This document shows, piece by piece, positions 20,214-64,000 of a stretch of DNA of 64,000 nucleotides (within the stretch, counting starts at the first letter, position 1; each line of letters opens with the position of its first letter). Both the position numbers and the translations under genes were made by a program. The notes below the pieces were generated by a model. That model had not been told where the DNA came from. It saw only the letters and a list, made by a program, of their open reading frames with translations, and did not search any database. Source of the DNA: an uncultured Alphaproteobacteria bacterium (GTDB lineage Bacteria > Pseudomonadota > Alphaproteobacteria > Rs-D84); assembly GCA_947367055.1 (NCBI GenBank), contig CANBCI010000003.1, forward strand, positions 161,508-225,507. The letters are read 5' to 3'.

Positions 20214-20225
20214 TCGCAGATACAT

Positions 20226-36231: not shown

Positions 36232-36477
36232 AAAAAGAACCAATTGCCTGCAATTTACAACGCCGGGCCAATATAGTCTGGGACAAGATAGCACAGCGCC
36301 ACAAAAAATCAAGCGGAAAATATTATAAGATTTTAATCGCGCCGGTGCAAGCAAAATATGCAATAAATATTCAAAATCAATCAGATAGGACGCGCGCACC
36401 ATCCGATACAAGCACTTTTTACTTGCGCGGCCCCCGCTTTTTTTTCTATGATTTACATACCAGGAGAGGAAAAATCG

Positions 36478-37154
36478 TGCAAAACCGCATAGAACCGCCA
36501 GTTTTAGTATCTCGTTTGATGACGTTTGTCTTGGCGGCGGCGCTGGTTGTATTAATGGCACTGGGGCTGACACTATACAAAATGTTCCCGCTAAACCGGC
36601 CGGAAATATTTTTCCTGGCATCCCAGCCGCGTGCCGATTTAGAAGTCCGGCTTATCGAAATGCCGCCAAATGATGAAAATTTGGCAAATTACAAAAAGGC
36701 TTTTATACGCGAATACATCAAGGCCCGAAACGAGGTTGTGCCCAATGCAAAGACAATGCGCGAAAAATGGGCGAACAACAGCGACGGCGTTGTGCGCGTA
36801 TGGTCTGACGACGCGGTATTTGCGAAATTCATTCAAACGGACATGTGGAACGCCCAGATGAACAACATACCGGATTTTGAGTTTTCATGCTCGGTTGAAT
36901 TTCAAAACGGTGCAATATCGCCATATTCAAACACTGACGACACATATATTGTAAATTTCCGTTATTTTTGTGCAGATAGTGATAGACAGATGGATAAAAA
37001 AGATTATAAAATAAAGATAAAGTTGGAAACAACGGACGGCGCAAAAATGAAATGGGCCGACCGCTTGGAAAATCCGTTGGGAATACGCGTGACGGAGTAC
37101 AAGGTGGAATCTGGAAACGGTGATCCGCTGGATACTGGGTTCCTGGCCGACTAA
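36478..37154 (+). CDS. virB8: type IV secretion system protein VirB8
   Basis: It has an N-terminal TM plus a periplasmic NTF2-like domain ending in NPLGIRVTEYKVE (VirB8 NPxG motif). Start is GTG at 36478 after GGAGAGG. The track's longer N-terminal extension is unlikely. Confidence 0.75.
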
Positions 37155-38720
37155 TTGATTTATGAAAGGATGATGGGCATGAGTTTTTCAAAAGCGTTCA
37201 AGTTAAATATATCCCTGTTGTGCATCGGCATGCTGTGCTTTGCCGCACCGGCGTTTGCCGAAGATTACGGCATACAGGAGGCATGGGACAACCCAAACGC
37301 CAACATGGCCAGCGGCAGCAGCAAACCCGGATACGCCCAATTGTCCTGGACCAAGGGCAGTGTTTTGCCAATCAAACTGCGCAACGGCATGGTGACAATG
37401 GTGACACTGCCAAACGGTGAACAAATTCAAGATGCCGTTATCGGGAACACGGGACTGTTCACAATTCAGGACGCGGTCCAGGGCGGCCGCACAATGATGA
37501 TAAGCCCGCAACCTGCCGTCCAGGGTGGCGATACAAACATGATTGTGACTGGCAAATCGGGAAATACATATGTGTTTTACCTGCGCGCGGAACCCGCAAA
37601 TTCCAGTGAAATTACATATTCACAGGTCGATATCGTTTTAGACGGAAACACCGCATTGCCCACAACGGGTACGGGCGCCACGACCGCATCCGGCGGAATG
37701 AATTCAATATTTGCGAAAAAATCCGCGGCGTCAAACACGGTTGGTGTTGACGGCGAAGATTACGGCTGGATAAAGTCCATGAAAATCGACCCGTCCGAAT
37801 TCCGCTTTGACCTGGACATTTTTGTTCCAAACCCTGATGATTATGTAATCGCACCGGAACGCGTATGGCGCGACAGAATATTTACATATATTGATTTTGG
37901 CGACAAGGTTATCGCCATGACCCAGCGCCCGGTCGTATCCCTTTTGGTCGAAGGTGGTGAATCCCCGGTTGGATTCCGCACCGACGGCGAAGACGGCCGC
38001 CTGTTGATTGTAGAGGCGGTCGGCGATATGGTTCTGCGCAGTGGCCAGCGAATTGTCTGCATTAAAAAGCGTGAAAAGCCGTTCCTGATTGCGGATACGG
38101 CATCCGTAATGGCCCTGGCCGAGGCGAATGTCGCCCAATCCATGATGTCCGGACAATCATTGAACAATATCGCGTATCAAATGGATGTGAACGCAATAAA
38201 CGCCGCCGGTACCAATTATACCGGGACACCGATATTCATGGGCCAAGGTGCCAGCAACACAACCGGTGCCGGATACTATATGCCCGCCGGATATGGCACA
38301 ATGATGACGGAAACTGTCACGGGTGGCGGCACGTCCGGCGTGACAATGATGCCGACCCAAAGACTAACGGCGGGTTCATATCTGCCACAAACAAATATAC
38401 CGCTGATTACCAGCAATCAAACCGGTGTCGCCGTTGAACTAAAATCCGACACATCAGTCAAGGCGCTGGATGATTATTGGACGGGTCTGCTGGCGAAATT
38501 CAGCGGCGATAACGGCCAGGGTCTGTTAACCCCGTACAAAGACATGGTGTTCTTTGCGGTTGATGAACAGGGTGTTGGTGATTTGGGTTCCGGTGCATCA
38601 ACGGCGCGTCTGTACCGCCTGCGCATAGGGCCGATGACGGATATTGACACGGCGCAATCGCTGTGCGACCAATTGCTGAAATTCAGCGGCGCCAGTTGCC
38701 ATGTCGTAAGAATCCAGTAA
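37155..38720 (+). CDS. virB9: type IV secretion system protein VirB9/TrbG-like, atypically long (521 aa) with Gly/Thr-rich insert and C-terminal SPOR-like domain
   Basis: The N-terminal domain is ...TGKSGNTYVFYL. The C-terminal VirB9 beta-sandwich is ...DYGWIKS...RIFTYIDFGD.... The C-terminus ...ARLYRLRIGPMTDIDTAQSLCDQLLKFSGASCHVVRI resembles SPOR. The true start may be ATG at 37179 (MSFSKAF… signal peptide). Confidence 0.7.
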   Translation: MIYERMMGMSFSKAFKLNISLLCIGMLCFAAPAFAEDYGIQEAWDNPNANMASGSSKPGYAQLSWTKGSVLPIKLRNGMVTMVTLPNGEQIQDAVIGNTGLFTIQDAVQGGRTMMISPQPAVQGGDTNMIVTGKSGNTYVFYLRAEPANSSEITYSQVDIVLDGNTALPTTGTGATTASGGMNSIFAKKSAASNTVGVDGEDYGWIKSMKIDPSEFRFDLDIFVPNPDDYVIAPERVWRDRIFTYIDFGDKVIAMTQRPVVSLLVEGGESPVGFRTDGEDGRLLIVEAVGDMVLRSGQRIVCIKKREKPFLIADTASVMALAEANVAQSMMSGQSLNNIAYQMDVNAINAAGTNYTGTPIFMGQGASNTTGAGYYMPAGYGTMMTETVTGGGTSGVTMMPTQRLTAGSYLPQTNIPLITSNQTGVAVELKSDTSVKALDDYWTGLLAKFSGDNGQGLLTPYKDMVFFAVDEQGVGDLGSGASTARLYRLRIGPMTDIDTAQSLCDQLLKFSGASCHVVRIQ

Positions 38721-38743
38721 TCCAAGCACGCGGCGGATAAAAC

Positions 38744-41107
38744 ATGATTAAAATAAAGCAACAATTTTCAGACCTGCGCAAAACAACGCCAAAGCATATC
38801 CAGTGGCTGCTGCTGGCGGCGGCGTTTATTGTGGTGTTGATATTGTTGACGCTACTGCTGACGGGCGGTGGGAAACAGGAAACAATCCAAAACACGGACG
38901 ATATTCCGGTACAATTAAACATAACGCCCGATGTAATCGACTGGGCGGACACGCCGGTTGATGAACGCCGCACGGAAACGATAAAAGTGTCGGCCAGTGG
39001 TCCGGTAAAAATCACGGCGGTTCGTGATACAAAAAGCATATCGGGATTTGAACACAAAGAAACCTGTCCCAACATGGGCGAAGTCAATGACAAAATCTCG
39101 TGCACGATAACGGTTGATTATGCACCAACCGCCGCCGCCGCCGCCGAAGGAAATGCACTGTTTATCGATTGGCGCGGTGCAAATGAATCCGACGCAATGG
39201 TGCGCACCGATAAAATTATCATCACATTGGGCGCGGTTGCACCCGCGGCGCCGGCAAATTTCATAGAACCAGAACCTGAGCCGGAAATTGTTATCCCGGA
39301 ACCGACGCCTGTAACGGCTGAAATTGTGCGTGAAATTGAAACAATCGCACCGTCTGATCCGTTTGCCGACGACAATGATGACGATTTTGTGGTCCCAGAA
39401 CCTGTACAACCCGCGCCACCGCCGGCAAAGCCGGTTGCAAATACACCGTCACGGGCAGAGGCATGCTCTGACTTTGCATTTGCGGGCTACAATTCAACTG
39501 GCAATCAAATCGGCTGGATAAAGCCAGAGGGCGGCGCATATTACTTTCACCCGTTTTCCGATAAAAACTGCGATACGCCGACGGGTATTTATAATCCGGA
39601 CAACGGCATAATTACATCAATTGACGGATCGGGTCAAAAAATCGGCACCGATGCGGAACATATCGGCCAGACGACAATTTCACTAAACGGCACGATTCCG
39701 CAACTGTCCAATGCGCCGGCCGTAAAAAAGGTGAACCGTGCACGGCAATTAACCACCGAAGAACTATCAACAGTCGCATTAAATGAGGGCATGGGCCAGG
39801 TTCCGTTGACCCCCGCGCCCGTGGACGTCAGTTTTGATTCCAGTGGCGACGTAATCCAGAATACGCAGCCATTTGACCGCTCATTTATACTGCGTCAATA
39901 TAAACCAATTCCGGCAACAATTGTTTCGGACATTCGTGCCGATGCAGAGGCATTGGCAAACAACACACTGCCGGTTCGCGCAACAGTTGACCGCAATGTC
40001 TATGCCGATAACGGCCGCACGGTTATTATACCGGCCGGGACCCTGCTGATGGGATATGTGACGGGCACATTGCCCGGCCCGTACACCACAATCGGGCGTA
40101 TGGATATCCGTTGGTACCAGTTTATATTGCCCAGTGGCGTTGAATTTAATTTCCAAAATAAAGAACAGGATCCGTTTTCCGCAGACGCCCAGGGGCGCAC
40201 CGGTGTTCCCGGCCGCGGCAGCACGGATTATCTGGAACAGTTTGTTATGCCGATGCTGACGGCGATTGTACCGGCGGCGGTAAACATGATTGCACCTGTC
40301 GCGGACAAGTTTGTTAACCAGATTGATTTGGACAATAACACCGTGGTTCAAAGCGGCACACTGCGTTCATCGGAATTGGCTAAAAATGAAATTATCACCG
40401 CATGGAATCAGGTGGCCCAGAAATTAATGGTTGATATGATGGAAAATACAGTACCGCCGTTTTCAATTGCGGCCGGCACGCGTATAACCGTGTATTCGCC
40501 GGTTGATTTGCAGGTCACATGCGGATCCGCAGCAGAAAACCCGGGCAAAAAATGCGCCATAAAAGAATACAATACCAGCAGACGCCGCAATGTTGTCAAT
40601 GATGCGCAACCGAATTATTCCGACGGATCTTGGGTCGGCCAGGTTCGCTCTTTCAACTGGGCTAAATATTGCGACGGGTACGCAAATGGTAAACTGTCAG
40701 ACTATCAAACAGAGAAAGTATACCAAGACGGCCTGGATTATAGTTCGGTTCTGTTCTATTGCCAATCCAACCAATACAAGGCGATAAACAACGCCCGCCA
40801 GGAGGCATTGTACCAGAATCAGCAGTCAACCAGCAATCAGAACAGCGTTGCCAGCATGGGCGGCATAGGGTCGACCACATACAATGAAAATGTTCTGGGG
40901 TTGCAGTATGCGGACGAAGATAAAACACAGATTGTAAATCCGTTTATACAATTGCCGACGGAAAACGCCCCGTTGATAACATGCGAAGACGGTTCAAATC
41001 CGGACGCAAACGGATGTTGCACCGGTGAAATATATACGGACATGGGTGACCAAGGATTTAATTGTTGCCCGGAAACCGGGGGCGATTGTTTCCCGCCGAT
41101 ACTGTAA
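38744..41107 (+). CDS. virB10: type IV secretion system protein VirB10/TrbI-like, atypically long (787 aa) with Pro-rich linker and approx 230 aa Cys-rich C-terminal extension
   Basis: It has a TM near the N-terminus, a PEPEPEIVIPEPTP linker, and the core ...RTVIIPAGTLLMGYVTG...RMDIRWYQFILPSG...TGVPGRGSTDYLEQF.... An extra domain ends in ...CEDGSNPDANGCCTGEIYTDMGDQGFNCCPETGGDCFPPIL. Confidence 0.8.
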   Translation: MIKIKQQFSDLRKTTPKHIQWLLLAAAFIVVLILLTLLLTGGGKQETIQNTDDIPVQLNITPDVIDWADTPVDERRTETIKVSASGPVKITAVRDTKSISGFEHKETCPNMGEVNDKISCTITVDYAPTAAAAAEGNALFIDWRGANESDAMVRTDKIIITLGAVAPAAPANFIEPEPEPEIVIPEPTPVTAEIVREIETIAPSDPFADDNDDDFVVPEPVQPAPPPAKPVANTPSRAEACSDFAFAGYNSTGNQIGWIKPEGGAYYFHPFSDKNCDTPTGIYNPDNGIITSIDGSGQKIGTDAEHIGQTTISLNGTIPQLSNAPAVKKVNRARQLTTEELSTVALNEGMGQVPLTPAPVDVSFDSSGDVIQNTQPFDRSFILRQYKPIPATIVSDIRADAEALANNTLPVRATVDRNVYADNGRTVIIPAGTLLMGYVTGTLPGPYTTIGRMDIRWYQFILPSGVEFNFQNKEQDPFSADAQGRTGVPGRGSTDYLEQFVMPMLTAIVPAAVNMIAPVADKFVNQIDLDNNTVVQSGTLRSSELAKNEIITAWNQVAQKLMVDMMENTVPPFSIAAGTRITVYSPVDLQVTCGSAAENPGKKCAIKEYNTSRRRNVVNDAQPNYSDGSWVGQVRSFNWAKYCDGYANGKLSDYQTEKVYQDGLDYSSVLFYCQSNQYKAINNARQEALYQNQQSTSNQNSVASMGGIGSTTYNENVLGLQYADEDKTQIVNPFIQLPTENAPLITCEDGSNPDANGCCTGEIYTDMGDQGFNCCPETGGDCFPPIL

Positions 41108-41112
41108 ATAAT

Positions 41113-41138
41113 ACCCCCGCGCATGCGGGGATTTTTTT
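41113..41138 (+). terminator. rho-independent terminator ACCCCCGC-GCAT-GCGGGGGATTTTTTT after virB10
   Basis: A perfect hairpin plus T7. Confidence 0.65.
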
Positions 41139-41414
41139 ATTAACCACAGGGGTTGAAAAAATAAAGAAATGATTTATATATGTTCATGTATTCGGCACGC
41201 ACATTCGCGTGCCGTTTTTATTATACGCCAATTTGCGCCGCCCTGAAAAACGCGATATTTTGCGATTCGGATACACCCCAACAAAAGCGACAAACGAATC
41301 GAAAAACATAATCGCATTTCAACCATTGGTTGTAACATTTTACAGCCTTCAATTCTTGCTCTATACCAAAAGGACAACCTGTCATAAGTAATCTAAACAC
41401 AAAGGAGGGATAAT

Positions 41415-41759
41415 ATGACACAAAAAGAAGCCGTACTAAACAATTCGGAAAAATTCCAGAACGCCGAACAATTATGGTTTTGGTTTCTGTATTCAAAATC
41501 CGTTCAACATGGTTTTGTACGGAATTTTGGACGCGCCACCCGCAGACCCTGTGAATTGCTGGATGTTGAAACGCTGATAACAAAATTGTACCTGTCGGGT
41601 CGGCTGAATGACGAACAATTGGCCGTCATGAAAAAGTTCGGCGACCGGCGGCGCGCGCCACACCAACATATTTGGCATGAAAACCGTGCCGCGGACTTAT
41701 GGCGCCGCGCAATGGAAACATTGAACACGGCATTTACACAACAGGGATGGATTGAATAA
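41415..41759 (+). CDS. hypothetical protein (114 aa) with strong SD AAAGGAGGG
   Basis: A clean ORF with an RBS, in a small operon downstream of virB10. Confidence 0.5.
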   Translation: MTQKEAVLNNSEKFQNAEQLWFWFLYSKSVQHGFVRNFGRATRRPCELLDVETLITKLYLSGRLNDEQLAVMKKFGDRRRAPHQHIWHENRAADLWRRAMETLNTAFTQQGWIE

Positions 41760-42192
41760 AACTATCGGCACACGGCATCCGGCGGGGAGATACGAATGCC
41801 CACGCCCGTTATACAAACATATTGGAACACTTGACATGATTATTATTGCATTTTCATCAAATACATCAAAAATATTACCACGAATTTTTTGCAGACATTT
41901 TCGGCACTGTGCGGTGATTATCCCGCACGCGGGTATGCAGCCCGAACTGCATTTATACCAATTTCTGCGACGCAAGCATGTTGCACGATTATCCCTAAAA
42001 TGCCGCGATATAAATGTGCTGCGCAGGCATGGATGGCATTTCTTATACATACCGGGCGACGTCACGATGCCAACAAATGCGGCGCGCGCCATGACATGCG
42101 TCAATTTTACAAAACGGGCAATCGGCATGCGCGCCCCATTTGTACAAACCCCGGACGCCCTGTACCGGCGACTAAAACACATGATAAAATGA
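41752..42192 (+). CDS. hypothetical protein (146 aa), overlaps upstream stop by 8 nt
   Basis: The ORF is followed by a terminator. Composition is less protein-like. Confidence 0.3.
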   Translation: MNKTIGTRHPAGRYECPRPLYKHIGTLDMIIIAFSSNTSKILPRIFCRHFRHCAVIIPHAGMQPELHLYQFLRRKHVARLSLKCRDINVLRRHGWHFLYIPGDVTMPTNAARAMTCVNFTKRAIGMRAPFVQTPDALYRRLKHMIK

Positions 42193-42222
42193 AATCCCCC
42201 GTTTCGGGGGATTGTTTTATTT
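42192..42222. terminator. bidirectional terminator AAATCCCCC-GTTTC-GGGGGATT
   Basis: A hairpin between convergent genes. Confidence 0.6.
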
Positions 42223-47602: not shown

Positions 47603-48817
47603 TTAATGAAACACATAACTGTCAATTCCGGCGGCGGACGCCCGCTGACGCAAAGATGATGCCGCGGCGTCCGACAATCCGTTCACACGCACGCGCCACA
47701 TTCCATTTGGTGCCTTTTCAATCACTGGCGCGACATTTAACGAACTTTTCACATTGGCAACCTGATTTGCGGCCGCATCACGCGATGAAAACGCACCAAA
47801 CTGAACCCCGGCCGCACCGACGCCAGATGCCGCACCACCAGATGACGCGGTCGATTTTGCCGGCGCCGAATTATGCTGCGCACCACTTGTCGCCGCAACA
47901 TACGCCGCATTAAATGTCGGCGCGGCAGCGGCATTTGACTTTGGCTGTGCGACGGGCACTGGCGCAGATGACGCGGACGATACGGGCGACGCCACCACGG
48001 CGGCGGCATCAGGCGCAACACCCGACAACGCGAAACCCTTGTTTAACATCTGGACCGATACGTTCGCACGCACATCCTTGTTTTCCGCCCCCAAGACCAC
48101 GGACATCATGCGTTTTCCGCCGCGTTGCGCGGTCGCAACCAGCGAATATTTAGACTTGTTCGTAAAGCCGGTTTTCATCCCGTCACACCCCGCATACGAC
48201 CCCAGCAACCGGTTGCCGTTTGTATATGTTTTGCCGTTGTATGTCCATGTCTTTATTCCGAAATATTTCCAGTATTGCGGGAAATGCTTATACACCGCCA
48301 TGGACAGCAATGCAATATCACGCGCAGTCGACAAATGATCATCATTCGGCAGTCCGGACGAATTTTCGAAATTGGTCTGACTAAGTCCGATTTCATTGGC
48401 AACGCGGGTCATAAGGCCGGCAAAATTGCCCTCCTTGCCCCCTTTAAGGTTTTCCGCCAACACCCGCGCAACATCATTTGCGCTTAAAACCGCGACAGCC
48501 TTTATCGCGTTTTCAACGGAAATCTTGCTGCCCGCGGCCAGGCCCAGTTTTACCGGCGACGCGTTTGCGGCAGACTGTGATACAATCAGATAATCATCCA
48601 GATGCAGCCGCCCGTGTTCCAGCGCATCAAATGTCAAATACAGTGTCATTATCTTGGTCAATGACGCCGGATAATTCGGCTGGGTTGCGTTTTCCTGATA
48701 CAATATGCGCCCGGTATCCATATCGGCAACCAAGGCGGCCCGATACTGCGCCGCACGCGCCGGCGCGCATAATGCCGCCGCAAAAAATGCACAAATAAGA
48801 ATGCCCCTTGCCTTCAT
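47603..48817 (-). CDS. D-alanyl-D-alanine carboxypeptidase (PBP5/DacC-like) with C-terminal SPOR domain
   Basis: It carries SLTKIMT (SxxK) and SGN motifs. The C-terminus ...VQFGAFSSRDAAANQV...WRVRVNGLSD...SYVF is a SPOR domain. Confidence 0.8.
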   Translation of the reverse strand: MKARGILICAFFAAALCAPARAAQYRAALVADMDTGRILYQENATQPNYPASLTKIMTLYLTFDALEHGRLHLDDYLIVSQSAANASPVKLGLAAGSKISVENAIKAVAVLSANDVARVLAENLKGGKEGNFAGLMTRVANEIGLSQTNFENSSGLPNDDHLSTARDIALLSMAVYKHFPQYWKYFGIKTWTYNGKTYTNGNRLLGSYAGCDGMKTGFTNKSKYSLVATAQRGGKRMMSVVLGAENKDVRANVSVQMLNKGFALSGVAPDAAAVVASPVSSASSAPVPVAQPKSNAAAAPTFNAAYVAATSGAQHNSAPAKSTASSGGAASGVGAAGVQFGAFSSRDAAANQVANVKSSLNVAPVIEKAPNGMWRVRVNGLSDAAASSLRQRASAAGIDSYVFH

Positions 48818-50914: not shown

Positions 50915-50986
50915 AACATAGATTTTATAAAAAATTCACGGCGGCATAAATGCCACCGTGATAAATTTTAATACCGCACCATATTA

Positions 50987-51778
50987 TTACGGATTTTTAG
51001 CGTTTTGGCGTGCCGCGGCCTGTTGCTGGTTATAATTATAAGTCGCAATCTGCACCAGGAATTTTTGCGCACAATCCAAAACCTCGTCGCGACGGCTGGT
51101 GCCACCGGTCCCGGTTGAACTATCTCTTATGGTGCTACAATTAGCCAGTATTCCTTTATAAGGATTCTCATCCGCGGATTTCTCTATAATCTTCCAGGTT
51201 TCCGCAATTTCCAAGTCACGTCGCAACTGCTTTTTCGCATCGGTTATATTGCCGGCGTTAATTGCGTTCACAACCGTCTGGACATTTTGTTGCAAACATG
51301 CCGCGGCGTTAACCGGACTCGTCGCAGACAGCATGCAGTTCTGCGTACCGGCCAAGACTATGTTTTTATCGGTTGAATTGGCCGCGCCGCTGGATGAATT
51401 TTCCGCCTCGGCACCGGCCGCCTGCAAACTGGTGGTCAAAACGGCCTTTTTAAGTTGCGTCTTAAACCGGCGCATCATTGCATCCAGATATTCATACTGC
51501 TTGTACATCTGCTGAGTCATGATAGTGGTTTTCAGCGCGATAACCTCTTTCATGGCCTGTTTTGTTGTCTCACTCGACGGGTTTATCGTGTGGTTTATAT
51601 TATACGCGTGAACACTGCATAATGCAATTTCCGGCGAAATATATTCATTTTCATCTTTTTCACAGCCATTGCTTGTCGCGGCAACAACAGGGGAAACCCG
51701 CAACGCACACGTCATAACTGTCGCACATACGCAAGGTATTTTTAGCAAATTAAAAATTATTCTTTTTGTTTTTACCAT
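50987..51778 (-). CDS. hypothetical secreted protein (263 aa), Cys-containing, adjacent to large Cys-rich paralog
   Basis: It has a signal peptide and Gln-rich helical regions. Confidence 0.5.
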   Translation of the reverse strand: MVKTKRIIFNLLKIPCVCATVMTCALRVSPVVAATSNGCEKDENEYISPEIALCSVHAYNINHTINPSSETTKQAMKEVIALKTTIMTQQMYKQYEYLDAMMRRFKTQLKKAVLTTSLQAAGAEAENSSSGAANSTDKNIVLAGTQNCMLSATSPVNAAACLQQNVQTVVNAINAGNITDAKKQLRRDLEIAETWKIIEKSADENPYKGILANCSTIRDSSTGTGGTSRRDEVLDCAQKFLVQIATYNYNQQQAAARQNAKNP

Positions 51779-51802
51779 TTATAATAATTACCATTTTGCG
51801 TT

Positions 51803-53659
51803 TTATTTACAAGTATGTGTACCTACATCCCAGTTTTTGCCGGCCGCAATACAGTCTTGAATTGCTTGACTATTTGCATTCAAATCCGGCATTTTGAACA
51901 GATTTTTTGTTGCCTTTTCAACTGGGCCCATTGACTTTACACTATCCGTCATATTAAATTGGCATTCGCCGTTTACATCCTCTGAATAACCAAATGGACA
52001 ACTACATGTACTGCTTAATGTCCAAACACCCCCAGAATTTTTGCATTTACATTCAGCGGTTCCAGCCGCAACGGAAGTACTGCAATAAGAGCTGTTCTGG
52101 CTGGTTGTATCACTAGTTACAGGACCGGTGCCTACTTTTTTAGAATACGTTGACTTTAAGTCTTTAACACAAACTTTTTCCGGCAATTGTTTAAGATTAA
52201 CCGCTTTCTGTAGTTCCGATAATGTATTTTCATTTACCGCACAATAAATTACGCCGTCATTTGCGGGTGTTGTATTTCCCCCAAACAGGCCCGAACCGTA
52301 TATCGCCGGTGCATCCTGTTCAATTATGCGTTCCAGAATCTCAACATCAATTGACGCCTGTTTCTTGCGTTTGCCGAATATTTTTGAATTATCCAATGCG
52401 GCCGACGCACATCCGACACGAATGCTGTCGTCACCATTTTCTTCGCTGTCAAGCCAATCGCGGTAAACCTGATCCGAACTGCTTAATGTCTTGTTCAATG
52501 TACAGTACATATCATCTTCGGCGGGGATAACCATACCCAGTGTGCAAGAATGCCCACCCTTGGCACCATAACCCGCCACGGATTTACCATTTGAACAATT
52601 TCTTTCATCGTATGTATATCTCTTATTACCCTTTTCAGGATATGCACACAAATACTGTCCCCAGATATTACAACTGCCCTCAAGCATCATGTAGATATCC
52701 GTAATATCAACACCGACAGACTGTGCGGTTATCAACGCGTCGTACATTTCATCCAAAACATCATTGTACGGTTCAAAGAATTGCTCTGCCCGGTCCTTGA
52801 ACACCTTTACACGCTTTGGCCCGGCGCAATTGTTTCCCTTTTTATCGCACCCGGCATATTCAAACGCCGTTTCCATTGTCGCCTTTAGAGATTTCATTGC
52901 GACCTCGGCATTTTCAATTTTTGACAGGATTTCACCCGAAATCTGTTCACGCAGCAATATGTCACTTGATACGCCGTTTTGCGCTGCGGCAACCTGGGCG
53001 GCGGTTAATTGCGTTTCACCGGACGGACTAGACACCATGCCGGCGGCGGCCGCGGTTGTCGCCGTGGCCGCGGCGTTCGCCGTTGCCTGGGCGGTTAATT
53101 GTTTCTGTTCCTCTAGCGCGGCCTGCATCTGTTGCATTTGCTGGGCATTCTGGGCGGCCATTTCAGCCTGCATCTGTTGCATTTGCATCTGCATTTGTTG
53201 CATCTGCTGGGCGGACTGCTGCGCGGCGGCATTTTGCGCCGCGGCCGCGGCCTGGGCGGCGGCCTCGTTCGCCTTGGCGGTCGATGACGCAACCAGTTGC
53301 GCCGAAATATATTGAACTAAATCATTTCCGTATTGCTTACACGCGTCATTTGATTGGACACAGCCCGATACAATCGCCGATGTGACATCCATTGATGTGC
53401 AACCGCCCGTCGCACATTTCGGCTGTGCACAGCGCATAATCAACGCATTGCAATTTCCAAAATCAGCCGTGGCCGGCGTTCCCGCCGCATTGCGCGAATT
53501 GATAAGCGAATTCCAGTTGTTGTTGTTATTTGCGCCCGACGGATTAAAAGCGGTTAAATTATTGCCATTCGTGGTTGCAATCACCGCGCCCGCGTCAAAC
53601 ATCGGCGCAAAGGCAATCGCAGATATTGCGGACAAAAAAATCAATGATATGCGTTTCAT
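51803..53659 (-). CDS. secreted Cys-rich coiled-coil protein (approx 618 aa) with Gln/Met-rich repeat (QQMQQMQMQMQQMQAEM) and C-terminal EGF-like motifs (ECKCKNSGG…STCSCPFGYSEDVNGEC)
   Basis: The likely start is MKRISLIFLSAISAIAFA (AGAGAGAA SD) rather than the track start 53737. The CSCPFGY...C stretch fits the EGF-2 pattern. Confidence 0.65.
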   Translation of the reverse strand: MKRISLIFLSAISAIAFAPMFDAGAVIATTNGNNLTAFNPSGANNNNNWNSLINSRNAAGTPATADFGNCNALIMRCAQPKCATGGCTSMDVTSAIVSGCVQSNDACKQYGNDLVQYISAQLVASSTAKANEAAAQAAAAAQNAAAQQSAQQMQQMQMQMQQMQAEMAAQNAQQMQQMQAALEEQKQLTAQATANAAATATTAAAAGMVSSPSGETQLTAAQVAAAQNGVSSDILLREQISGEILSKIENAEVAMKSLKATMETAFEYAGCDKKGNNCAGPKRVKVFKDRAEQFFEPYNDVLDEMYDALITAQSVGVDITDIYMMLEGSCNIWGQYLCAYPEKGNKRYTYDERNCSNGKSVAGYGAKGGHSCTLGMVIPAEDDMYCTLNKTLSSSDQVYRDWLDSEENGDDSIRVGCASAALDNSKIFGKRKKQASIDVEILERIIEQDAPAIYGSGLFGGNTTPANDGVIYCAVNENTLSELQKAVNLKQLPEKVCVKDLKSTYSKKVGTGPVTSDTTSQNSSYCSTSVAAGTAECKCKNSGGVWTLSSTCSCPFGYSEDVNGECQFNMTDSVKSMGPVEKATKNLFKMPDLNANSQAIQDCIAAGKNWDVGTHTCK

Positions 53660-53748
53660 ATTCTCTCTGCTACAAATTTTAACACAAAGTTCGAATAAAA
53701 CAAAGCAAAAAGATATACACCGTACGCTTAAAAACAAAAAGCGGCAGA

Positions 53749-54039
53749 TTATTTCTGTCGCTTTTTGGTGGCGGGCCTTTCGCCCTCCAGTAATTTCATT
53801 TGCATTTCCATAATGGTCTTTTCACGGTCGCGTATCACTTCCAGCAGGCGGTCGTTTTCCAACTTTATGCTGTCCAGCTCACGGCGGCCGACCTCCACCT
53901 GATTTGACAACTGACGGTGCCGGCCGCGATTAAACAACCCCGTCACCAACGCACCCACCAGCGCGCCGCTTGATGCGCTTAACAAATCCGATAAAGTTTC
54001 AACCAATGGTGTCGCCATACGCAAATCATACCGCAACAC
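53749..54039 (-). CDS. small membrane/coiled-coil protein (DUF1043/YhcB-like)
   Basis: It has an N-terminal TM plus a coiled coil. Confidence 0.45.
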   Translation of the reverse strand: MLRYDLRMATPLVETLSDLLSASSGALVGALVTGLFNRGRHRQLSNQVEVGRRELDSIKLENDRLLEVIRDREKTIMEMQMKLLEGERPATKKRQK

Positions 54040-54655: not shown

Positions 54656-54819
54656 TTTCTTTTATCCTTATGTTTTACTGTTCGTGGCATTATAGCAACC
54701 TTTTGCTTGCGCCGCAAATCTTATATTGATATTATTATTTTGTTATCGGGTGTTTCGATAATGGGGTTTAGCGACCCCGTCGTATACGTCGGCACGTCGC
54801 GTTATGACGCGCAAAAAAT

Positions 54820-54943
54820 CTCCAACCCATGGGTTGGAGGGGTGGAAATATCAAAAATACCACCACTATTTATACGATAGTCGCTAACCTCCAACCACAC
54901 AGATTCTGCGTGGTTTTTTCATATGATGTTATGGAGAACGACA
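54820..54943 (+). promoter_or_regulatory. conserved structured leader, copy B (P1 CUCCAACC-CAUG-GGUUGGAGG; P2 GGUGG/CCACC; terminator CCUCCAACCACACAGAUUCUGCGUGGUU-UUUUC) upstream of Cys-rich secreted protein gene
   Basis: Visible directly. The terminator U-run ends about 24 nt before ATG 54944. Confidence 0.5.
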
Positions 54944-55435
54944 ATGAAACAATTTTTTATAGCATGCGCCGGCGCTATTGCAACCGCACAGGCTTTGGCG
55001 GTAATATCACCCCAACAAAACTACTGCATACTTTGCCAAATACCAAACCTGGGAGCAGGCGAAACGATTACATACGCCGATGTATGCTATTCTGATGAAT
55101 TGGCCGATTGCAAGTCTTTTCGTCCGTCCGTTATCGGAACTACAAATCATGTGCAAACTCTTTCAAGTGGAAAACTGAATTGCACCGTAAATTACAATAC
55201 CGTCAGTGCAACATGCACTAAAACCATATCCTATCGGTGCGAAAGCGGATACTTCGGCACCCCGACCAAAGGAATCTCTGGATGCACCAGTTGCGCCGAC
55301 GCCACCGGAAACAGCAATGCAACATCAAAGGTGGGTGCAACCGCAATCACCGATTGCTATATACCGGCCGGCAACTCCGACGAAGACACAACCGGACATT
55401 TTTCATATACCGACGATTGCAAATATTCAAACTAA
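54944..55435 (+). CDS. secreted Cys-rich protein (163 aa; CESGYFG…C EGF-like motif)
   Basis: It has a signal peptide MKQFFIACAGAIATAQALA and 14 Cys. The start is at 54944 (GGAGAA SD), not the track start 54923. Confidence 0.6.
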   Translation: MKQFFIACAGAIATAQALAVISPQQNYCILCQIPNLGAGETITYADVCYSDELADCKSFRPSVIGTTNHVQTLSSGKLNCTVNYNTVSATCTKTISYRCESGYFGTPTKGISGCTSCADATGNSNATSKVGATAITDCYIPAGNSDEDTTGHFSYTDDCKYSN

Positions 55436-59170: not shown

Positions 59171-60502
59171 TTATTCACCCAATTTTTTGATTGATTCAAC
59201 AGACATTAACAAACCGTACTTTGCCTGCAGCAAGGCCGTATCCAACTGATACAGGCCCGCCGACACTTCGGCCAGTTCGACGGCCGATGTCTGGCCTGCG
59301 GCAAAGCGTTCGGTTGAAAACTGGTACGCCTTGGCCGCCAGATTGCGCGCGTTTTCCAGCGTCGCCAAATTGTCACGCAAATGGTTGTATTTCTTTATCG
59401 CGTTGTCATATTCCTCTGTCTTCAGCTTCTTTGACTTGTACAGGTCCTGGCGCGCGGCCTCGGCATCCATGGCATCCATGGTCGCGTTTGCACGATGCAG
59501 CCCACCACTAAACAACGGCATTTGCATTGCCAGCCCCCAATACGCCGACTGGGTTCCCTTTTTATCAAACATTGTGTCAAATTCGTTGCCCATGGCGAAA
59601 TAGTTATAAGACGCCGTCGCCGCCAGTGTCGGCAGATATTCCGCACGCGATGATTTCACCTTGGATTCGTACATTTTCACCTGCCCGGCCAAAACGTCCC
59701 ATTCGGGCGTGTTTTCCAATTTTCCCGCATCCAAGGCCGGGAATGATTTTGGAAAATCGTCGGTCAGTGTGATTTCTTCATTCACATCTATCCCCGCAAA
59801 AATCTTAAGCATGCGGTACGCGGTGTCACGATTAAACTCCGCATTGGACAGATTGATTTCCTTGGTTGCGATGTCGGATTCAATTTTAACCAGGTTGCTG
59901 CGGCTGGCGCGGCCCGCCGCCCCCAGATTGCGACGCGCATTGCGTGCCGCCTGTAAATCAGATTTTGCGATTTTTACAATGTCGTCCGTCATTTTTGCGG
60001 TCCAATACAAATCAGTCGCGCTGTATTTAACCTCGCGGCGAACCATTTCACGGCTGGCCTCGGACATCTTTATGGCGGCCTTTACACTTTTAACCGCGTT
60101 GCCGATTTTACCAAATGTATAAATCGGCTGGCTGGCGCTGACGCCGACGGTGAACATGTTATCCGGAATTTCCAGATACACCGACTGATTGGCCAGCGAC
60201 TCGTCAATCATCGCACCCAACTGCGACGGCAGTGTAACGCCACGTGCCTTGGATGGGTCTTCGACATTAACCAGGTTCATGTATGTCGCCGATCCGTCTA
60301 TTTTGAACCAGCGGTTTGCATTAACCGCATCCAACTGCGCGGTGGCCTTTTTCACATTGGCCTCGGCCTTTTTTAAATCCTCCGATTCGTGCATGATCAT
60401 GTCAACCGCCGTTTGCAATGACAAATCCATGGCGGCGACACCGCGCGAAAACACACACGCGCACAATGCGCACGCAATAAATGCAAATCGCTTGTTAAGC
60501 AT
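59171..60502 (-). CDS. TolC family outer membrane efflux protein
   Basis: It is 443 aa with a signal peptide and coiled-coil/beta-barrel repeats. Confidence 0.85.
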   Translation of the reverse strand: MLNKRFAFIACALCACVFSRGVAAMDLSLQTAVDMIMHESEDLKKAEANVKKATAQLDAVNANRWFKIDGSATYMNLVNVEDPSKARGVTLPSQLGAMIDESLANQSVYLEIPDNMFTVGVSASQPIYTFGKIGNAVKSVKAAIKMSEASREMVRREVKYSATDLYWTAKMTDDIVKIAKSDLQAARNARRNLGAAGRASRSNLVKIESDIATKEINLSNAEFNRDTAYRMLKIFAGIDVNEEITLTDDFPKSFPALDAGKLENTPEWDVLAGQVKMYESKVKSSRAEYLPTLAATASYNYFAMGNEFDTMFDKKGTQSAYWGLAMQMPLFSGGLHRANATMDAMDAEAARQDLYKSKKLKTEEYDNAIKKYNHLRDNLATLENARNLAAKAYQFSTERFAAGQTSAVELAEVSAGLYQLDTALLQAKYGLLMSVESIKKLGE

Positions 60503-60944
60503 TTTCCAACTCCATATCTGTTAAAATCTTTTCTATTTCCCGCAGGGCATTTGTAAAACGCGCCTCGTCCTTTTGGGAAAGGCCACTAAACATTTTCTCA
60601 ATGCCGCCACGAAATTTTTCAATTGCGGCCGCCGCCAAATCCACGCCGCGGGCCGTGCATTCATACCAAGTATTGCGACGGTCCGTTTCATCAACCGCGC
60701 GCGAAACAAATCCGTCGCGTTCCAGTTTACGGAATGCCGCGCACAAATTCGGCGTGGTAATCTGTTCGCAACGCGCGATATCCTTCAGACGCGTGCGTCC
60801 GCTGACATACAGCCGTACCAGAATATTTAACTGCTGCCGCGGCAACGTGGGTGACTGTGTGGGTTCTTTTTTTAGTTTATATGCCAGTTTGTCCAACAAT
60901 AAAATATTGTTTTCCATCAACTGAACAAATTCCTTGCGCGCCAT
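60495..60944 (-). CDS. MarR family transcriptional regulator
   Basis: It has a winged HTH and is the first gene of the efflux operon. Confidence 0.8.
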   Translation of the reverse strand: MARKEFVQLMENNILLLDKLAYKLKKEPTQSPTLPRQQLNILVRLYVSGRTRLKDIARCEQITTPNLCAAFRKLERDGFVSRAVDETDRRNTWYECTARGVDLAAAAIEKFRGGIEKMFSGLSQKDEARFTNALREIEKILTDMELENA

Positions 60945-61117
60945 GTAATTATCCTTTATAATAATTAATGAAGTGTTTAATTGTTAAAAATCTGAATAAT
61001 TATATATTTTAACAATTCTATTGCAAGCAAAAAATTCACAATTTTTTATTTTTATTCCCACGGCTGGATTTTTATTATTGCAAAACCCGCAAAGATAATT
61101 ATAATCAATAGCGCTTT

Positions 61118-61191
61118 TGGGGTGTCGTCTAATGGTAGGACAAGAGATTTTGGTTCTCTTTATCATGGTTCGAATCCGTGCGCCCCAACCA
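61118..61191 (+). tRNA. tRNA-Gln (anticodon TTG), U1-A72 first pair
   Basis: TGGGGTGTCGTCTAATGGTAGGACAAGAGATTTTGGTTCTCTTTATCATGGTTCGAATCCGTGCGCCCCAACCA folds as a cloverleaf. Confidence 0.8.
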
Positions 61192-62088
61192 GAATAAACA
61201 AAGTCACCCAAAAGGTGGCTTTCCTTTTGGAAAACCAAGATTTTTGCAGAGTTCGAAAATGTGATTTAAAATTTATTGACACTTTCGAACTAATTATAAA
61301 CGTATTGCAAGAATATGACATTTTTGATATAAATTTTATGAAGAGGTCTGGCATATGACTGGTATTGACTATATAAAAAATGCTGTTTTTGAATTGCTAA
61401 AAAATAATTCTAATGGGCATGATGATAAACATGTATTTCGCGTTTATAATACTGCCATGAATTTTTGTGACGATATTCCGTCGGCCAACCACGATTTAGT
61501 CGCAGCCGCAGCCCTGTTGCACGATTGCGACGATTACAAATTATTTGGCGAAGAATCAGAAAGGCTATTGACGAACACAAGACGCATATTATCAGGTTCT
61601 GGATTTGATGCCGAATTTTGTGAAAATGTTATCAATATAGTAAAAACAATTGGATACAGCAAGCGGTTGAAAGGTATTAAAGCGTATGGTATTGAAGGCG
61701 AAATTGTATCTGATGCTGATATGTGCGATGCATCGGGGGCAACTGGTATGTTGCGTTGTATTGAATATCGTTCTAGCAGTGGCCAACCATTTTTTGATCC
61801 AAATTATTTACCCTGTGAAATGGATGCCGCGACATATAGAAAATCAAAAATTGATCCATGCGTAAATCATTTCTTTGTTAAAATATTTCATTTGCGAGAT
61901 ATGTGTTTGACAGAACCAGGACGTAAATATGCGGCAAAAAAACATAAAGCCATTGTTGATTTCCTAAAAACATATTTTGACGAAGTCAATGCACCACAAA
62001 TATGGTACGATTTGTTGAAAAAATATGAATAAATAACCCGCATTCCGCCAGCACCCAGCACCCCACAACCACGATAAACAAAGTCACC
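61192..62088 (+). mobile_element. low-GC islet at tRNA-Gln 3' end flanked by approx 27 bp direct repeats (61183-61208 and 62061-62088), each followed by a similar hairpin terminator
   Basis: DR1 is CCCCAACCAGAATAAACAAAGTCACC and DR2 is CCCCACAACCACGATAAACAAAGTCACC. The enclosed HD gene is visibly AT-rich. Confidence 0.45.
61355..62032 (+). CDS. HD domain phosphohydrolase
   Basis: H...HD motif (HDDKHVFRV…LLHDCDD). Confidence 0.7.
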   Translation: MTGIDYIKNAVFELLKNNSNGHDDKHVFRVYNTAMNFCDDIPSANHDLVAAAALLHDCDDYKLFGEESERLLTNTRRILSGSGFDAEFCENVINIVKTIGYSKRLKGIKAYGIEGEIVSDADMCDASGATGMLRCIEYRSSSGQPFFDPNYLPCEMDAATYRKSKIDPCVNHFFVKIFHLRDMCLTEPGRKYAAKKHKAIVDFLKTYFDEVNAPQIWYDLLKKYE

Positions 62089-62138
62089 GCACAGGTGACA
62101 TTTTCTTTGATTTCCTAATATTTTATGCTTCTTTCGAA

Positions 62139-62687
62139 CTATTTTTTATATTTAACATAAACCAGTTCATCGCATTTGCCTGTACATTTTGCCCAGGATG
62201 CCATTGGCCGACGTTCCAAAAATTCATAACCATTGCGCTTTGCAACATTTTCTGAACGGATATTTCCGTCATCTATTTCAATGATTATTTTATTAAAGCC
62301 AAAGTTAAACAATTCTTGTTCAAGGGCGGACAGTGCCTCACCCATATATCCATTGCCAGATGCAGGCTTCGTCTGCCAGTATCCTACATAACCGGAATCT
62401 GCCCCCGTACGCTTAAAACGTATGCGACCAATAAATTCATTATCATGAAATATACCATAGCAGACAGCTTCATCCGTCACACGCTGCTGAATACGTTTTT
62501 GCAACAGTGCCTTAACATCATCGGGGGATTTTATATATTCCATGAAACCTTGAAAGCTTTCTATATAATCACGACTGCCGTCCATGGCATTATAAATCAT
62601 TTGTGCATTTTCATCGGTTGCATCCAACGTGCGCAATTCCAGCCGTAGTGTTAATATTGTCTCCGCAAATTCTGACAAAGGCCTCAT
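62139..62687 (-). CDS. GNAT family N-acetyltransferase (RimJ/RimL-like)
   Basis: It has the GNAT core (…IGRIRFKRT…GYMGEAL…). The start MRPLSEF is preceded by AAAGGA. Confidence 0.7.
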   Translation of the reverse strand: MRPLSEFAETILTLRLELRTLDATDENAQMIYNAMDGSRDYIESFQGFMEYIKSPDDVKALLQKRIQQRVTDEAVCYGIFHDNEFIGRIRFKRTGADSGYVGYWQTKPASGNGYMGEALSALEQELFNFGFNKIIIEIDDGNIRSENVAKRNGYEFLERRPMASWAKCTGKCDELVYVKYKK

Positions 62688-62908
62688 ATACAATCCTTTT
62701 ACATTATAGTTACCTGTATTATAGCACGATATCAAAACATGGCCTAGCCATTACCACAAATTAGCAGCATGGCCTTTACTTGTTCAATTTCCGGTGCCAT
62801 TTTGATTAAATCATTATAATAATTGGTTCGAAAATTGCCAGTCAGGCACAACCAAAATAAACAACACCGCCAAGAAGGGTGGTGCTTTTATCAATTCACA
62901 CAAAAATA

Positions 62909-63811
62909 TTATTCCGCATCATAATATTTATGGAACATCTTGGCGGCGGCACGCAATGATTTTTCAATATTAGAATTATTTTCGGCCGGCCCCCAACTTT
63001 TTATATCACTGCGTTCACCAATTCCCAAACATTTCCCAGGATTCAATTCCAGCGTTAACGGAAATTTGTATTTCATCTTTTTGAGCTCGCAAAAAAAACG
63101 TTTAAAATCAATTCCACCCATATGAAACGGATTATGAAAATCAACGCACGGATATGTATTGTGCAAATGGAATGTGAAAACACGATCTTTTAATATTTCC
63201 AATGTTTGCCAAAAATGCTTTTCCACATCTTTTTGGGCCTCTGGACTTTCAGATGCATACGCATGCCCCACATCAAAGCAAAATCCCAAATTATCCGCTT
63301 TGATTCTGTCTTTAAAATATTGTAAATTATTATGGTACGCAAACAGTGACCCCCGCATCCACGTTGTTTCAATCGCTATTTTCATACCATGCTTTGCGGC
63401 ATGTCGCGCCAATGCGTGTGCCCATTTCACGCACAATTCCATGCGCGCCGGATGTTCGGATAGTGGGAAAGCCCCTTCGTCTGGGTGTATAACCGCTACC
63501 TGTATCCCAAGCTTTGCATAATAATCAATACAGTCTTTGATATATTCCAACCGCTGTTTATATACTGCCACATCAAAAGACAATTGTCCGCCCACCATCG
63601 GCAAATGACCGCTGAAAAAGCGCAAGCCGGCATTACGCATTACTTTGTTGATTATTTTTGGATTCGTAGAAAAATGTCCGACGGACGGGAAATATTCCGC
63701 CGCGGAAAATCCGGTCTTTTTCAGAATTGCCGGCAAAGAAAAAAAATCGATGCCATAATCCTTGCTGGGGTGTTGACATTCAAACCAGCCGATATTAATA
63801 GACAGTTGCAA
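62909..63811 (-). CDS. sugar phosphate isomerase/epimerase (xylose isomerase-like TIM barrel)
   Basis: TIM-barrel AP-endonuclease-2/xylose-isomerase-like pattern (…AVIHPDEG…FDVGHAY…). Confidence 0.65.
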   Translation of the reverse strand: MQLSINIGWFECQHPSKDYGIDFFSLPAILKKTGFSAAEYFPSVGHFSTNPKIINKVMRNAGLRFFSGHLPMVGGQLSFDVAVYKQRLEYIKDCIDYYAKLGIQVAVIHPDEGAFPLSEHPARMELCVKWAHALARHAAKHGMKIAIETTWMRGSLFAYHNNLQYFKDRIKADNLGFCFDVGHAYASESPEAQKDVEKHFWQTLEILKDRVFTFHLHNTYPCVDFHNPFHMGGIDFKRFFCELKKMKYKFPLTLELNPGKCLGIGERSDIKSWGPAENNSNIEKSLRAAAKMFHKYYDAE

Positions 63812-63900
63812 AATATTCTCCTTTGGCGGAATTATATCATAATTTGGAAATGAAAATATCTGAAATTTTCTAAAATTTTACGTACTTTCGAACCGATAGG

Positions 63901-64000
63901 TTATTTATCAATCTTGAACTTTGGGTACATCTTCATATCACGCGGCACGCCATAAAGTTGAAAAGCACAACGCATGGCCACCGCATCACAGGCCATATCA
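63901..64000 (-). CDS. 3' end of a minus-strand gene truncated by window edge (…MACDAVAMRCAFQLYGVPRDMKMYPKFKIDK*)
   Basis: An open frame runs to the edge and ends in TAA at 63901-63903. Confidence 0.3.
   Translation of the reverse strand, partial: DMACDAVAMRCAFQLYGVPRDMKMYPKFKIDK

Follow-up and report, generated by a model that had tools for sequence, protein, structure and literature searches.

Introduction

The F-plasmid TraN is an outer-membrane protein of ~600 amino acids (aa) with ~22 cysteines, in which a variable region sets recipient specificity, and the chlamydial OmcB and OmcA are a large and a small Sec-exported, cysteine-rich envelope protein, encoded together in an obligately host-dependent bacterium. 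The present analysis concerns a pair of adjacent genes, here called D and C, in a 64,000-nucleotide stretch (the window) of an uncultured alphaproteobacterium of the order Rs-D84 (assembly GCA_947367055.1, contig CANBCI010000003.1, positions 161,508 to 225,507). Gene D (51803-53659, minus strand) encodes a 618-aa, predicted exported protein with 24 Cys and stands first in the D-C unit, and gene C (50987-51778, minus strand) encodes its partner, a predicted exported helical protein of 263 aa with six conserved Cys in its mature part. D is similar to TraN in its length of about 600 aa, its Cys number, its signal peptide and the possession of a variable region, and the genome encodes a type IV secretion system (T4SS), whereas D shows no Pfam TraN match and no T4SS linkage, and the system is VirB-type. 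With OmcB/OmcA the pair shares the combination of a large and a small cysteine-rich exported protein, but there is no sequence or profile similarity, and D has a putative coiled-coil stalk and a polymorphic tip.

The window derives from a gut alphaproteobacterium of Candidatus Enterousia type with a reduced genome. Genomes of Rs-D84 measure ~0.75-1.0 Mb; the lineage has neither flagella nor respiration, lacks most biosynthesis and is predicted to live as an obligate symbiont or parasite on metabolites taken from other cells (PMC12306168). Where a source is recorded, the genomes carrying D orthologs are mostly from animal or human gut (sheep, deer, water buffalo, yak, wild mice), and a literature search on Enterousia, Rs-D84 and RF32 yielded genome-level descriptions only, with nothing on these proteins. 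A first-pass annotation had placed D and C, together with three further genes of the window (A, B and E), in one expanded family of secreted proteins with signatures like those of epidermal growth factor (EGF). The reading favoured here, tentatively, is that D-C makes up an exported, disulfide-braced, surface- or envelope-associated binding (adhesin-like) complex with a polymorphic tip.

Results

Distribution and architecture of the D family

At 90% identity, the homologs of D fall into more than 1267 clusters, none of them with a name or a Pfam domain, and orthologs were observed in 243 species-level genomes labelled as Ca. Enterousia, uncultured Alphaproteobacteria or Rickettsiales. A phmmer search with the D core (residues 215-525) against 1.84 billion representatives gave 151 matches, 145 of which lay below 1e-10, and all 151 displayed the same architecture or were fragments of it. 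The family profiles of D, A and C found no match among PDB sequences, fold searches with D returned nothing specific, and neither D nor A was present in the viral contigs and plasmids scanned, so that a phage or plasmid origin is unsupported. By these searches, D represents a large, sharply bounded and lineage-restricted family.

The ATG of D at 53659 agrees with a methionine that is invariant at the first position of the orthologs, and the window copy carries the features that define the family, namely the 19 invariant core Cys, the FGNCN and GVDITDIY motifs and a C-family gene directly downstream. Family alignments were made from 32 orthologs of D (A1) and 32 orthologs of A (A2), and hidden Markov models (HMMs) were built from both; the identities given below for the segments of D are mean pairwise values. 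The signal-peptide-like N-terminus (residues 1-25, MKRISLIFLSAISAIAFAPMFDAGA; 53585-53659, minus strand), as read from the sequence, is conserved in position among orthologs, has an identity of 0.44 and contains no lipobox, and is followed by a conserved Asn-rich linker (residues 26-64; 0.60). Next comes a six-Cys helical block (residues 65-110; 53330-53467, minus strand) with the arrangement C70-x6-C77-x4-C82-x4-C87 ... C100-x6-C107, in which all six Cys are invariant in the 32 orthologs and the identity reaches 0.75; AlphaFold2 (AF2) places helices at 68-83 and 90-102 with a predicted local distance difference test (pLDDT) score of 75-83, and with the predicted pairing the block would be a twin C-x6-C stapled helical hairpin. 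The adjoining Gln/Met/Ala-rich segment (residues 111-200; 53060-53329, minus strand; 0.66) is modelled by AF2 as a single helix at 108-199 and is a putative coiled-coil stalk, bearing both the lone Pfam match in D, a compositional one to TFIIA, and the Gln/Met-rich run of the first-pass annotation, which is present at residues ~150-165. A variable linker (residues 201-219; 0.26) leads into the conserved core (residues 220-500; 52160-53002, minus strand; 0.53-0.72), which consists of a helical hairpin and a small beta-rich subdomain with 10 invariant Cys, and the protein ends in a hypervariable tail (residues 501-618; 51806-52159, minus strand) holding two four-Cys modules, C539...C552-x-C554...C566 and C603...C617.

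Variation of the D tail

Differential conservation was observed along D, as the tail has a pairwise identity of 0.23 among orthologs and a length of 57-326 aa, compared with identities of 0.53-0.75 for the body. Within the 90%-identity cluster to which the window copy belongs, the proportion of variable columns is 89% for the tail, compared with 8-18% for the remaining structured segments and 42% for the short 201-219 linker, and two unrelated tail types are found. When the window was aligned with the syntenic locus L082, the nucleotide alignment broke exactly at 52236-51684, between flanks that are 81-88% identical; this replaceable cassette (51684-52236, minus strand) takes in D residues from ~476 to the end, a 24-nt spacer and the first ~31 codons, or signal peptide, of C. 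The related loci L017 and L082 are 98.5-98.9% identical over 13 kb, and yet a tail cassette of ~500-550 bp cannot be aligned between them, while the body of C is unaffected. Because these near-identical flanks carry unalignable tails, the tail of D is concluded to be replaced as a cassette. Some further D pairs have cores that are 93-99% identical with tails that are 25-48% identical; the converse also occurs, with tails 97-100% identical on cores 81-82% identical. The breakpoints lie 20-45 residues past the conserved LPxKVCV motif, and every tail variant inspected carries small Cys modules of 30-40 aa, the number of Cys in the tail ranging from 4 to 14 across 119 D homologs. The GC content is lower in the tail than in the core in 37 of 39 loci (37.8% versus 50.4% in the window), and no silent or orphan tail cassette was detected in the window. 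By these comparisons, the tip is swapped wholesale, even between strains of one species, while the body is under strong purifying selection.

A conserved N-terminal body, a sharply bounded, GC-poor and recombining C-terminal cassette and a small downstream gene in a bicistronic arrangement are the classic layout of polymorphic toxins, shared with contact-dependent inhibition systems and colicins, and D might on this ground be a polymorphic toxin or bacteriocin-like protein, in which a conserved body for delivery and receptor binding would bear a variable C-terminal killing domain, C acting as immunity protein or helper. Weak and generic structural matches of the helical hairpins to the pore-forming or colicin-like coiled coils YaxB, XaxA and AhlC point in the same direction. 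The tails, however, are tiny Cys modules in which no Pfam toxin domain was found, either in the 32 D orthologs or in the multi-module orthologs, and C does not co-vary with them, being conserved whatever the tail: the C body retains ~98.9% nucleotide identity between L017 and L082 despite their unrelated tails, and at the protein level C is 77% identical to the window copy. C also has a signal peptide of its own and is repeatedly fused downstream of the tail, as described below, and neither orphan cassettes in the window nor family members on viral contigs and plasmids accompany D. The variable C-terminal domain of a polymorphic toxin is present, but the co-varying immunity gene and the toxin domain are not, and such a role for D is regarded as very unlikely.

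The D-C unit and its neighbourhood

In 79 of 81 loci, the gene immediately following D is an ortholog of C, the spacer being 24 nt in the window, and the window C shows 39% identity (E 5e-62) to the neighbour of D in L001. In mature C, six Cys show little or no variation, and both D and C contain an even number of Cys in their mature forms. The two genes are fused into one open reading frame (ORF) in L029, P0038, P0249 and P0284; since the fusions of P0038, P0249 and P0284 are mutually diverged (43-54% identity) and each has closer unfused relatives (at 72%, 57% and 55% identity), at least three fusion events are considered independent.

Upstream of D, an extended -10 element TGTGTTAAAAT (53676-53686) and a Shine-Dalgarno (SD)-like element AGAGAGAAT (53660-53668) together occupy 53660-53686 on the minus strand, and the nucleotide motif TTTTTATGTTAAAATT-N7-9-AAGAGAGAAT-ATGAAA is conserved before D in all 15 related loci inspected; a simple -35/-10 scan does not call this promoter element. 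An intrinsic-terminator-like hairpin with an 11-bp stem and a T-run is situated immediately 3' of C (50929-50961, minus strand), and a second terminator-like hairpin with a T-run (53730-53766, minus strand), read from the sequence, ends the upstream 96-aa gene. By these signals, D-C appears to be a transcription unit of its own, isolated by the upstream hairpin and by the hairpin 3' of C. The extended -10 form TGTGnTAAAAT is found 20-35 nt before the ATG of A (~6880-6910), B (~18930-18960) and D (53676-53686) and is likely the strong-promoter consensus of the organism, and the SD-like element GAGAGAAT occurs upstream of D and B.

Beyond the pair itself, the neighbourhoods of D-C vary among the 81 loci and are mostly made up of housekeeping genes, while in about one third of the genomes more cysteine-rich exported families and a BspA-type leucine-rich-repeat protein are found nearby. 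Two such families, fam2 (~1050 aa, 36-41 Cys) and fam1 (~450 aa, 13-15 Cys), adjoin D-C in 28-33 of the 81 loci. The ~1050-aa family, present in 28 loci, has repeated C-x6-C-x6-C-x6-C modules and C-terminal hydrophobic segments, and the ~450-aa family is present in 33 loci; related loci also encode A-like paralogs of 856-967 aa and E-like proteins with repeated CxSGY[YF]..GCxxC units. Examples of these neighbour genes are L002 872-3982, L004 2610-5891, L001 11126-12502, L003 9298-11868, L058 9317-11941 and L058 2299-3435, and none of the additional cysteine-rich neighbour families of related loci occurs in the 64-kb window.

The company of fam1 and fam2 would suit an internal envelope scaffold, in which D-C would form a structural layer, cross-linked by disulfides and situated in the periplasm or at the outer membrane, that would stabilise the cell of a reduced-genome bacterium much as the chlamydial OmcB/OmcA pair does. 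A ~62-kDa protein is joined with a smaller cysteine-rich partner in one operon, the whole order possesses the strongly conserved body, and the periplasm is the default location of Sec substrates that carry no further signals. Against this, cassette replacement at 98.5-98.9% identity and the occurrence of common tails on diverged cores are hard to understand for a buried protein, and no Pfam similarity to the chlamydial outer-membrane protein (OMP) families was detected. A scaffold of this kind is thus judged unlikely, if less so than a toxin.

Relationships among the five cysteine-rich genes

The five ORFs of the first-pass annotation are all present, and their products are cysteine-dense with signal-peptide-like N-termini. 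Besides C and D, they comprise gene A (4605-6869, minus strand; 754 aa, predicted exported, 22 Cys), which belongs to a separate conserved family, gene B (18967-19503, plus strand; 178 aa, predicted exported, with 10 Cys in the mature part) and gene E (54944-55435, plus strand), a cysteine-rich orphan of 163 aa, or 170 aa when read from the upstream ATG at 54923. On direct reading of the sequence, the N-termini of A to E each show an n-region rich in K/R, followed by a hydrophobic stretch and a site of A-x-A-like type. Their Cys counts (A 22/754, B 11/178, C 9/263, D 24/618, E 12/170) amount to 2.9-7.1%, compared with a median of 1.4% over all window ORFs. Other exported proteins of the window are Cys-poor at 0-1.8% (0% in an OMP beta-barrel, 0.7% in OEP and 0.7% in the product of 47603-48817), which indicates that Cys-richness is a trait of these genes and not of the secretome, and the idea of a general secretome trait was dropped. 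The core Cys are invariant in 32 orthologs each of D (19 residues) and A (18 residues), and for this reason the cysteines are not regarded as compositional noise.

Descent from one expanded family was not borne out, as at least five unrelated families are represented. An all-vs-all BLASTP with the five proteins as database yielded a single weak link, between A 709-747 and D 534-567 (41% identity, E ~1e-3), and all remaining pairs had E >= 0.4. The D-family and A-family HMMs matched no other ORF of the window, and hhalign of A1 against A2 gave a probability of 13.8% over the coiled coil only; when D and A were aligned by sub-domain, the C-terminal module alone aligned (probability 78%, E 1.8e-5). 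Among the profiles of D, A, C, fam1, fam2 and fam5, the sole extra link was between A and the fam2 module (probability 73%, E 3e-5), and no relatives of B and E were found among the other proteins examined. The N-proximal DFxxC...C...C block proposed as a shared feature exists as the pattern C-x6-C-x4-C in A and D, but the two blocks do not align between profiles, and their homology is not supported by hhalign. C, proposed as a paralog of D, is instead its operon partner, and the ORF at 41697-42182 (9.9% Cys), tried as a sixth member, looks spurious and overlaps a plausible gene on the opposite strand. On sequence evidence, the five genes encode several unrelated cysteine-rich, predicted exported proteins and not one EGF-like family.

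Cysteine modules and the EGF-like signature

The motif CxCxxG[YF], described as recurring, was found in its strict form once, at D 552-558; A has the near miss CICPTGM, and B and E have CxxGY only, which is not above shuffle expectation (P = 0.06-0.09). Among the PROSITE patterns, EGF_2 matched once, at D 552-566 (shuffle P = 0.0015 for the regular expression), with no match in A, B, C and E, and EGF_1 matched nowhere. The matching four-Cys module (CKNSGGVWTLSSTCSCPFGYSEDVNGEC; D residues 539-566; 51962-52045, minus strand) aligns with A 714-746, and the pattern is retained in 7 of 32 D orthologs and 5 of 32 A orthologs. No Pfam EGF, laminin or eukaryote-type domain was obtained above threshold: the EGF-type models (EGF, hEGF, EGF_CA, Laminin_EGF and others) gave nothing at E <= 1 in the five window proteins, nothing at E <= 0.01 in 32 D orthologs and nothing at E <= 1 in nine orthologs with one to ~six tail modules, and the Pfam and NCBIfam scans of A to E produced compositional or sub-threshold matches only.

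The repeat unit of the tails contains four Cys, in the form C-x3-5-[GA]G-x-W-x(3-8)-C-x-C-x2-G-[FY]-x(7-10)-C. It resembles an EGF-like domain (PS01186 EGF_2; Pfam EGF clan) in that the D tail module ends in C-x-C-x2-G-[FY]-x7-C, in the short strands that AF2 places just after the C-x-C (558-560 and 566-568, with a block-mean pLDDT of 68-76 over residues 531-570), and in being a small, extracellular-type module that stands in tandem in some A orthologs. It differs from such a domain in having four Cys per module instead of six, in the conserved GG-x-W that precedes the C-x-C in D and A, and in the failure of every Pfam EGF model even where ~six copies are present, the pattern being unconserved among orthologs. 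D 526-566 can be read as six Cys, but the C2-C3 spacing of one residue does not follow the EGF six-Cys order, and C526, C537 and C566 are not conserved among the 32 orthologs. An HMM of the four-Cys module, built from D and A homolog tails, matches D alone among the window ORFs and misses B, E and even A. The cysteine-rich tail of VirB10, which had been counted in the same class, is likewise not matched. Sequence comparison does support the recurrence of a small EGF_2-pattern-like module at the C-termini of A and D.

In the conserved regions, the dominant Cys signature is, on the predicted models, the helical C-x6-C pair, which is not EGF-like. Three such pairs fall on predicted helices in D and seven in A, with counts invariant in 32 of 32 orthologs of each; compared with shuffled sequences, the seven pairs of A are a strong excess, a number attained in 0 of 2,000 shuffles, and the three pairs of D a marginal one (P = 0.049). 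Twin C-x9-C or C-x3-C helical hairpins of the CHCH type are known from the mitochondrial intermembrane space, and D (C70/C77 and C100/C107) and A (C472/C479 and C486/C493) share with them paired C-x(n)-C on consecutive helices, whereas the spacing of 6, the bacterial context and the lack of homology set them apart, the disulfide pairing of D and A being a prediction.

For a family of five paralogs with eukaryote-like EGF domains there remain the one EGF_2 match in D, the resemblance of the tail modules of A and D and the sub-threshold Ephrin_rec_like and Furin-like matches of an E-like protein and of E, described below. The lack of significant similarity between all other pairs and of cross-family matches in HMM and profile-profile searches, the absence of any Pfam EGF-type match in the window proteins, in 32 D orthologs and in A orthologs with ~six modules, and a module of four Cys instead of six that keeps EGF_2 in a minority of orthologs largely refute this model, which is now highly improbable.

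Genes A, B and E

Gene A is composed of an R/T/A-rich region, a 5-Cys block, a coiled coil, a helical core with the seven C-x6-C pairs and a variable tail; the Thr/Ala/Arg-rich region noted earlier is present with ~160 aa (residues ~60-222). Its C-terminal four-Cys module (residues 714-746, CVLSNGTWTGSVRDNSGQCICPTGMALDNNGSC; 4632-4730, minus strand) is the only element common to D; zero to ~six tandem copies are found in A orthologs, and the tail of the D-family protein P0045 matches the tail of the window A by tblastn. A second module of the form C-x6-C-x6-C-x6-C (residues 472-493; 5391-5456, minus strand), common to the ~1050-aa fam2, is present in 32 of 32 A orthologs (shuffle P = 0.0015). 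Residues 1-30 of A (MKRFIAVLSGLLVLPAFAEVAPIYY; 6780-6869, minus strand) are 81% identical in 32 orthologs, compared with 0.83-0.84 for the best core segments; such conservation of a signal peptide is unusual and suggests, at the level of sequence, that the segment has a particular function in targeting or docking or overlaps an RNA signal.

Gene B has no Pfam or NCBIfam match, and its cluster contains only 6 close sequences. Gene E has one CxSGYFG...GCxxC unit, and a search of 5.8e9 proteins returned only E itself. A segment of ~690 bp with E (about 54731-55422) is absent from the syntenic L017 and L082, which on either side of it share ~84-88% identity with the window, and E is therefore taken as a strain-specific insertion between the HAD hydrolase and the resistance-nodulation-division (RND) pump genes. 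Weak relatives of E occur in L058, where the E-like protein at 1333-1959 scores 21.3 bits on Ephrin_rec_like, against a cutoff of 23.1; E itself has no PF07699 match and reaches E 0.048 and 14.3 bits on Furin-like_2, against a cutoff of 28 bits. E and the E-like proteins of L058 share the unit C-x-SGY[YF]-x(n)-GC-x2-C with Ephrin_rec_like/GCC2_GCC3 and furin-like repeats (PF07699, PF15913), but all scores fall under the curated cutoffs, and E is an orphan unrelated to D.

The conserved leader motif described before one member is probably ACCTCCAACCAC followed by a hairpin, which is present before E, with 3 occurrences in the window against 0.26 expected. The sites are 54887-54898 (plus strand), 2126-2137 (minus strand) and 11767-11778 (plus strand), where the motif, a short hairpin and a T-run stand upstream of E, of the OMP beta-barrel gene 1482-2066 and of the PAP2 gene 11835-12392, respectively. 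The motif contains an anti-SD-like CCUCC and, from its sequence, looks like a terminator or attenuator-type leader.

Genomic context of the window

Homologs of VirB8, VirB9 and VirB10 are encoded at 36345-41107, 10 kb from D-C, and with the similarity of D to TraN in size, Cys count and specificity-type variable region they bring to mind an accessory adhesin of the genome's own T4SS, analogous in role to F-plasmid TraN; the large extra domains on VirB9 and VirB10 would be in keeping with this. On the other side, D, C and A match no Pfam TraN, VirB5 or other T4SS family, the system here is VirB-type and not F-type, and the neighbours of D-C are housekeeping genes, among which, as far as they were examined, no T4SS gene was recognised; Pfam showed none for L001, L082 and ten recurring neighbour families, several families being unscanned or without a Pfam match. 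The assignment of C as a VirB5-like pilus protein found no profile support, and a T4SS-dedicated role of D-C is held to be quite improbable.

The VirB9 homolog (37155-38720, plus strand; 521 aa) has ~215 aa extra at its C-terminus, and the VirB10/TrbI homolog (38744-41107, plus strand; 787 aa) has ~380 aa extra at the N-terminus and ~200 aa at the C-terminus, ending in a cysteine-rich tail (ITCEDGSNPDANGCCTGEIYTDMGDQGFNCCPETGGDCF) without a four-Cys module match. No convincing long gene is seen in the gap of ~1.1 kb between virB10 and yidC (41110-42215), which holds a plausible 114-aa ORF (41415-41759, plus strand) and an overlapping, probably spurious 161-aa ORF with 16 Cys (41697-42182, minus strand). 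Housekeeping genes of the window include those for mraZ, PLD, PFOR, flavodoxins, CarD, rpoB/C, YidC, LspA and pyruvate kinase, and an RND pump with OEP and MarR is also encoded. The GC content is 40-42% at 1-4000, 20000-22000 and 60000-64000, compared with about 47-54% elsewhere in the window, and the low-GC stretches contain small ORFs, an OMP gene and two signal-peptide proteins (20621-22194). An Rfam scan of the window detected four tRNAs only.

Discussion

In the proposed mechanism, D and C would leave the cytoplasm via Sec, be stabilised by disulfide bonds and work together in a single extracytoplasmic complex, in which D would provide a stalk and a tip: the six-Cys helical hairpin, the ~90-residue Gln/Met-rich helix and the helical/beta core would bear at their end small modules with four Cys each, between one and four in number, that follow the pattern C-x3-GG-x-W-x(n)-C-x-C-x2-G-[FY]-x(n)-C. 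This tip is exchanged as a recombination cassette while the body is held by purifying selection, and it may contact a variable external ligand, for example the surface of a partner or host cell; alternatively, the variation of the tip may be driven by pressure from immunity or phages. We infer the export, disulfide pairing, surface exposure and binding function of D-C from this organisation, as a conserved body with an obligate partner and a recombining module tip has the layout of a specificity-determining binding protein. Since the bacterium must live off other cells, the surface of a partner or host would be the obvious ligand. The earlier suggestion of adhesins or effectors of a host-associated organism holds in so far as the organism is host-associated and the proteins are of an exported, disulfide type, and of these roles the adhesin-like one is best supported, through the polymorphic tail.

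Several points weigh against a surface-exposed binding complex. In diderm bacteria a Sec signal by itself takes a protein no further than the periplasm, and no linkage of D-C to an outer-membrane anchor, an autotransporter barrel, a lipobox or a dedicated secretion gene was found. The very high conservation and universal presence of the body would also fit an internal envelope component, and the disulfides of D-C would have to form in an anaerobe. The hypervariability of the tail could in part result from relaxed constraint, which is argued against by the complete, even-numbered Cys modules kept in every variant inspected. With these points taken into account, the adhesin-like binding complex is still preferred, as a tentative reading.

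A bolder version of the binding complex is that D-C forms the conserved attachment organelle of Rs-D84 / Enterousia bacteria, in which swappable four-Cys tips set the partner or host surface that is bound, and that the same type of module is shuffled by recombination onto other, unrelated exported stalk proteins such as A; this is less likely than not. If it were true, D-C would be an independently arisen bacterial counterpart of eukaryotic EGF-repeat adhesion molecules.

Secreted cysteine-rich proteins that combine a conserved body with a polymorphic tip are, in bacteria dependent on a host, a familiar kind of thing, while the protein families and modules themselves are undescribed, having no name, Pfam domain or structural relative. 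To read these genes as an EGF family of eukaryotic type was attractive, but the outcome shows it to be wrong. Neither the four-Cys tail module nor the C-x6-C helical modules belong to a described domain type; both could enter domain libraries, and models of them could then label thousands of 'hypothetical proteins' in gut metagenomes. Members of Rs-D84 and Candidatus Enterousia are widespread in human and animal guts, and the mechanism by which they make contact is undescribed (PMC12306168); D-C, which is found across the order, has its own conserved, putative promoter, is predicted to be exported and exchanges its tip between strains, is a concrete and testable candidate for a contact or specificity determinant of these bacteria.

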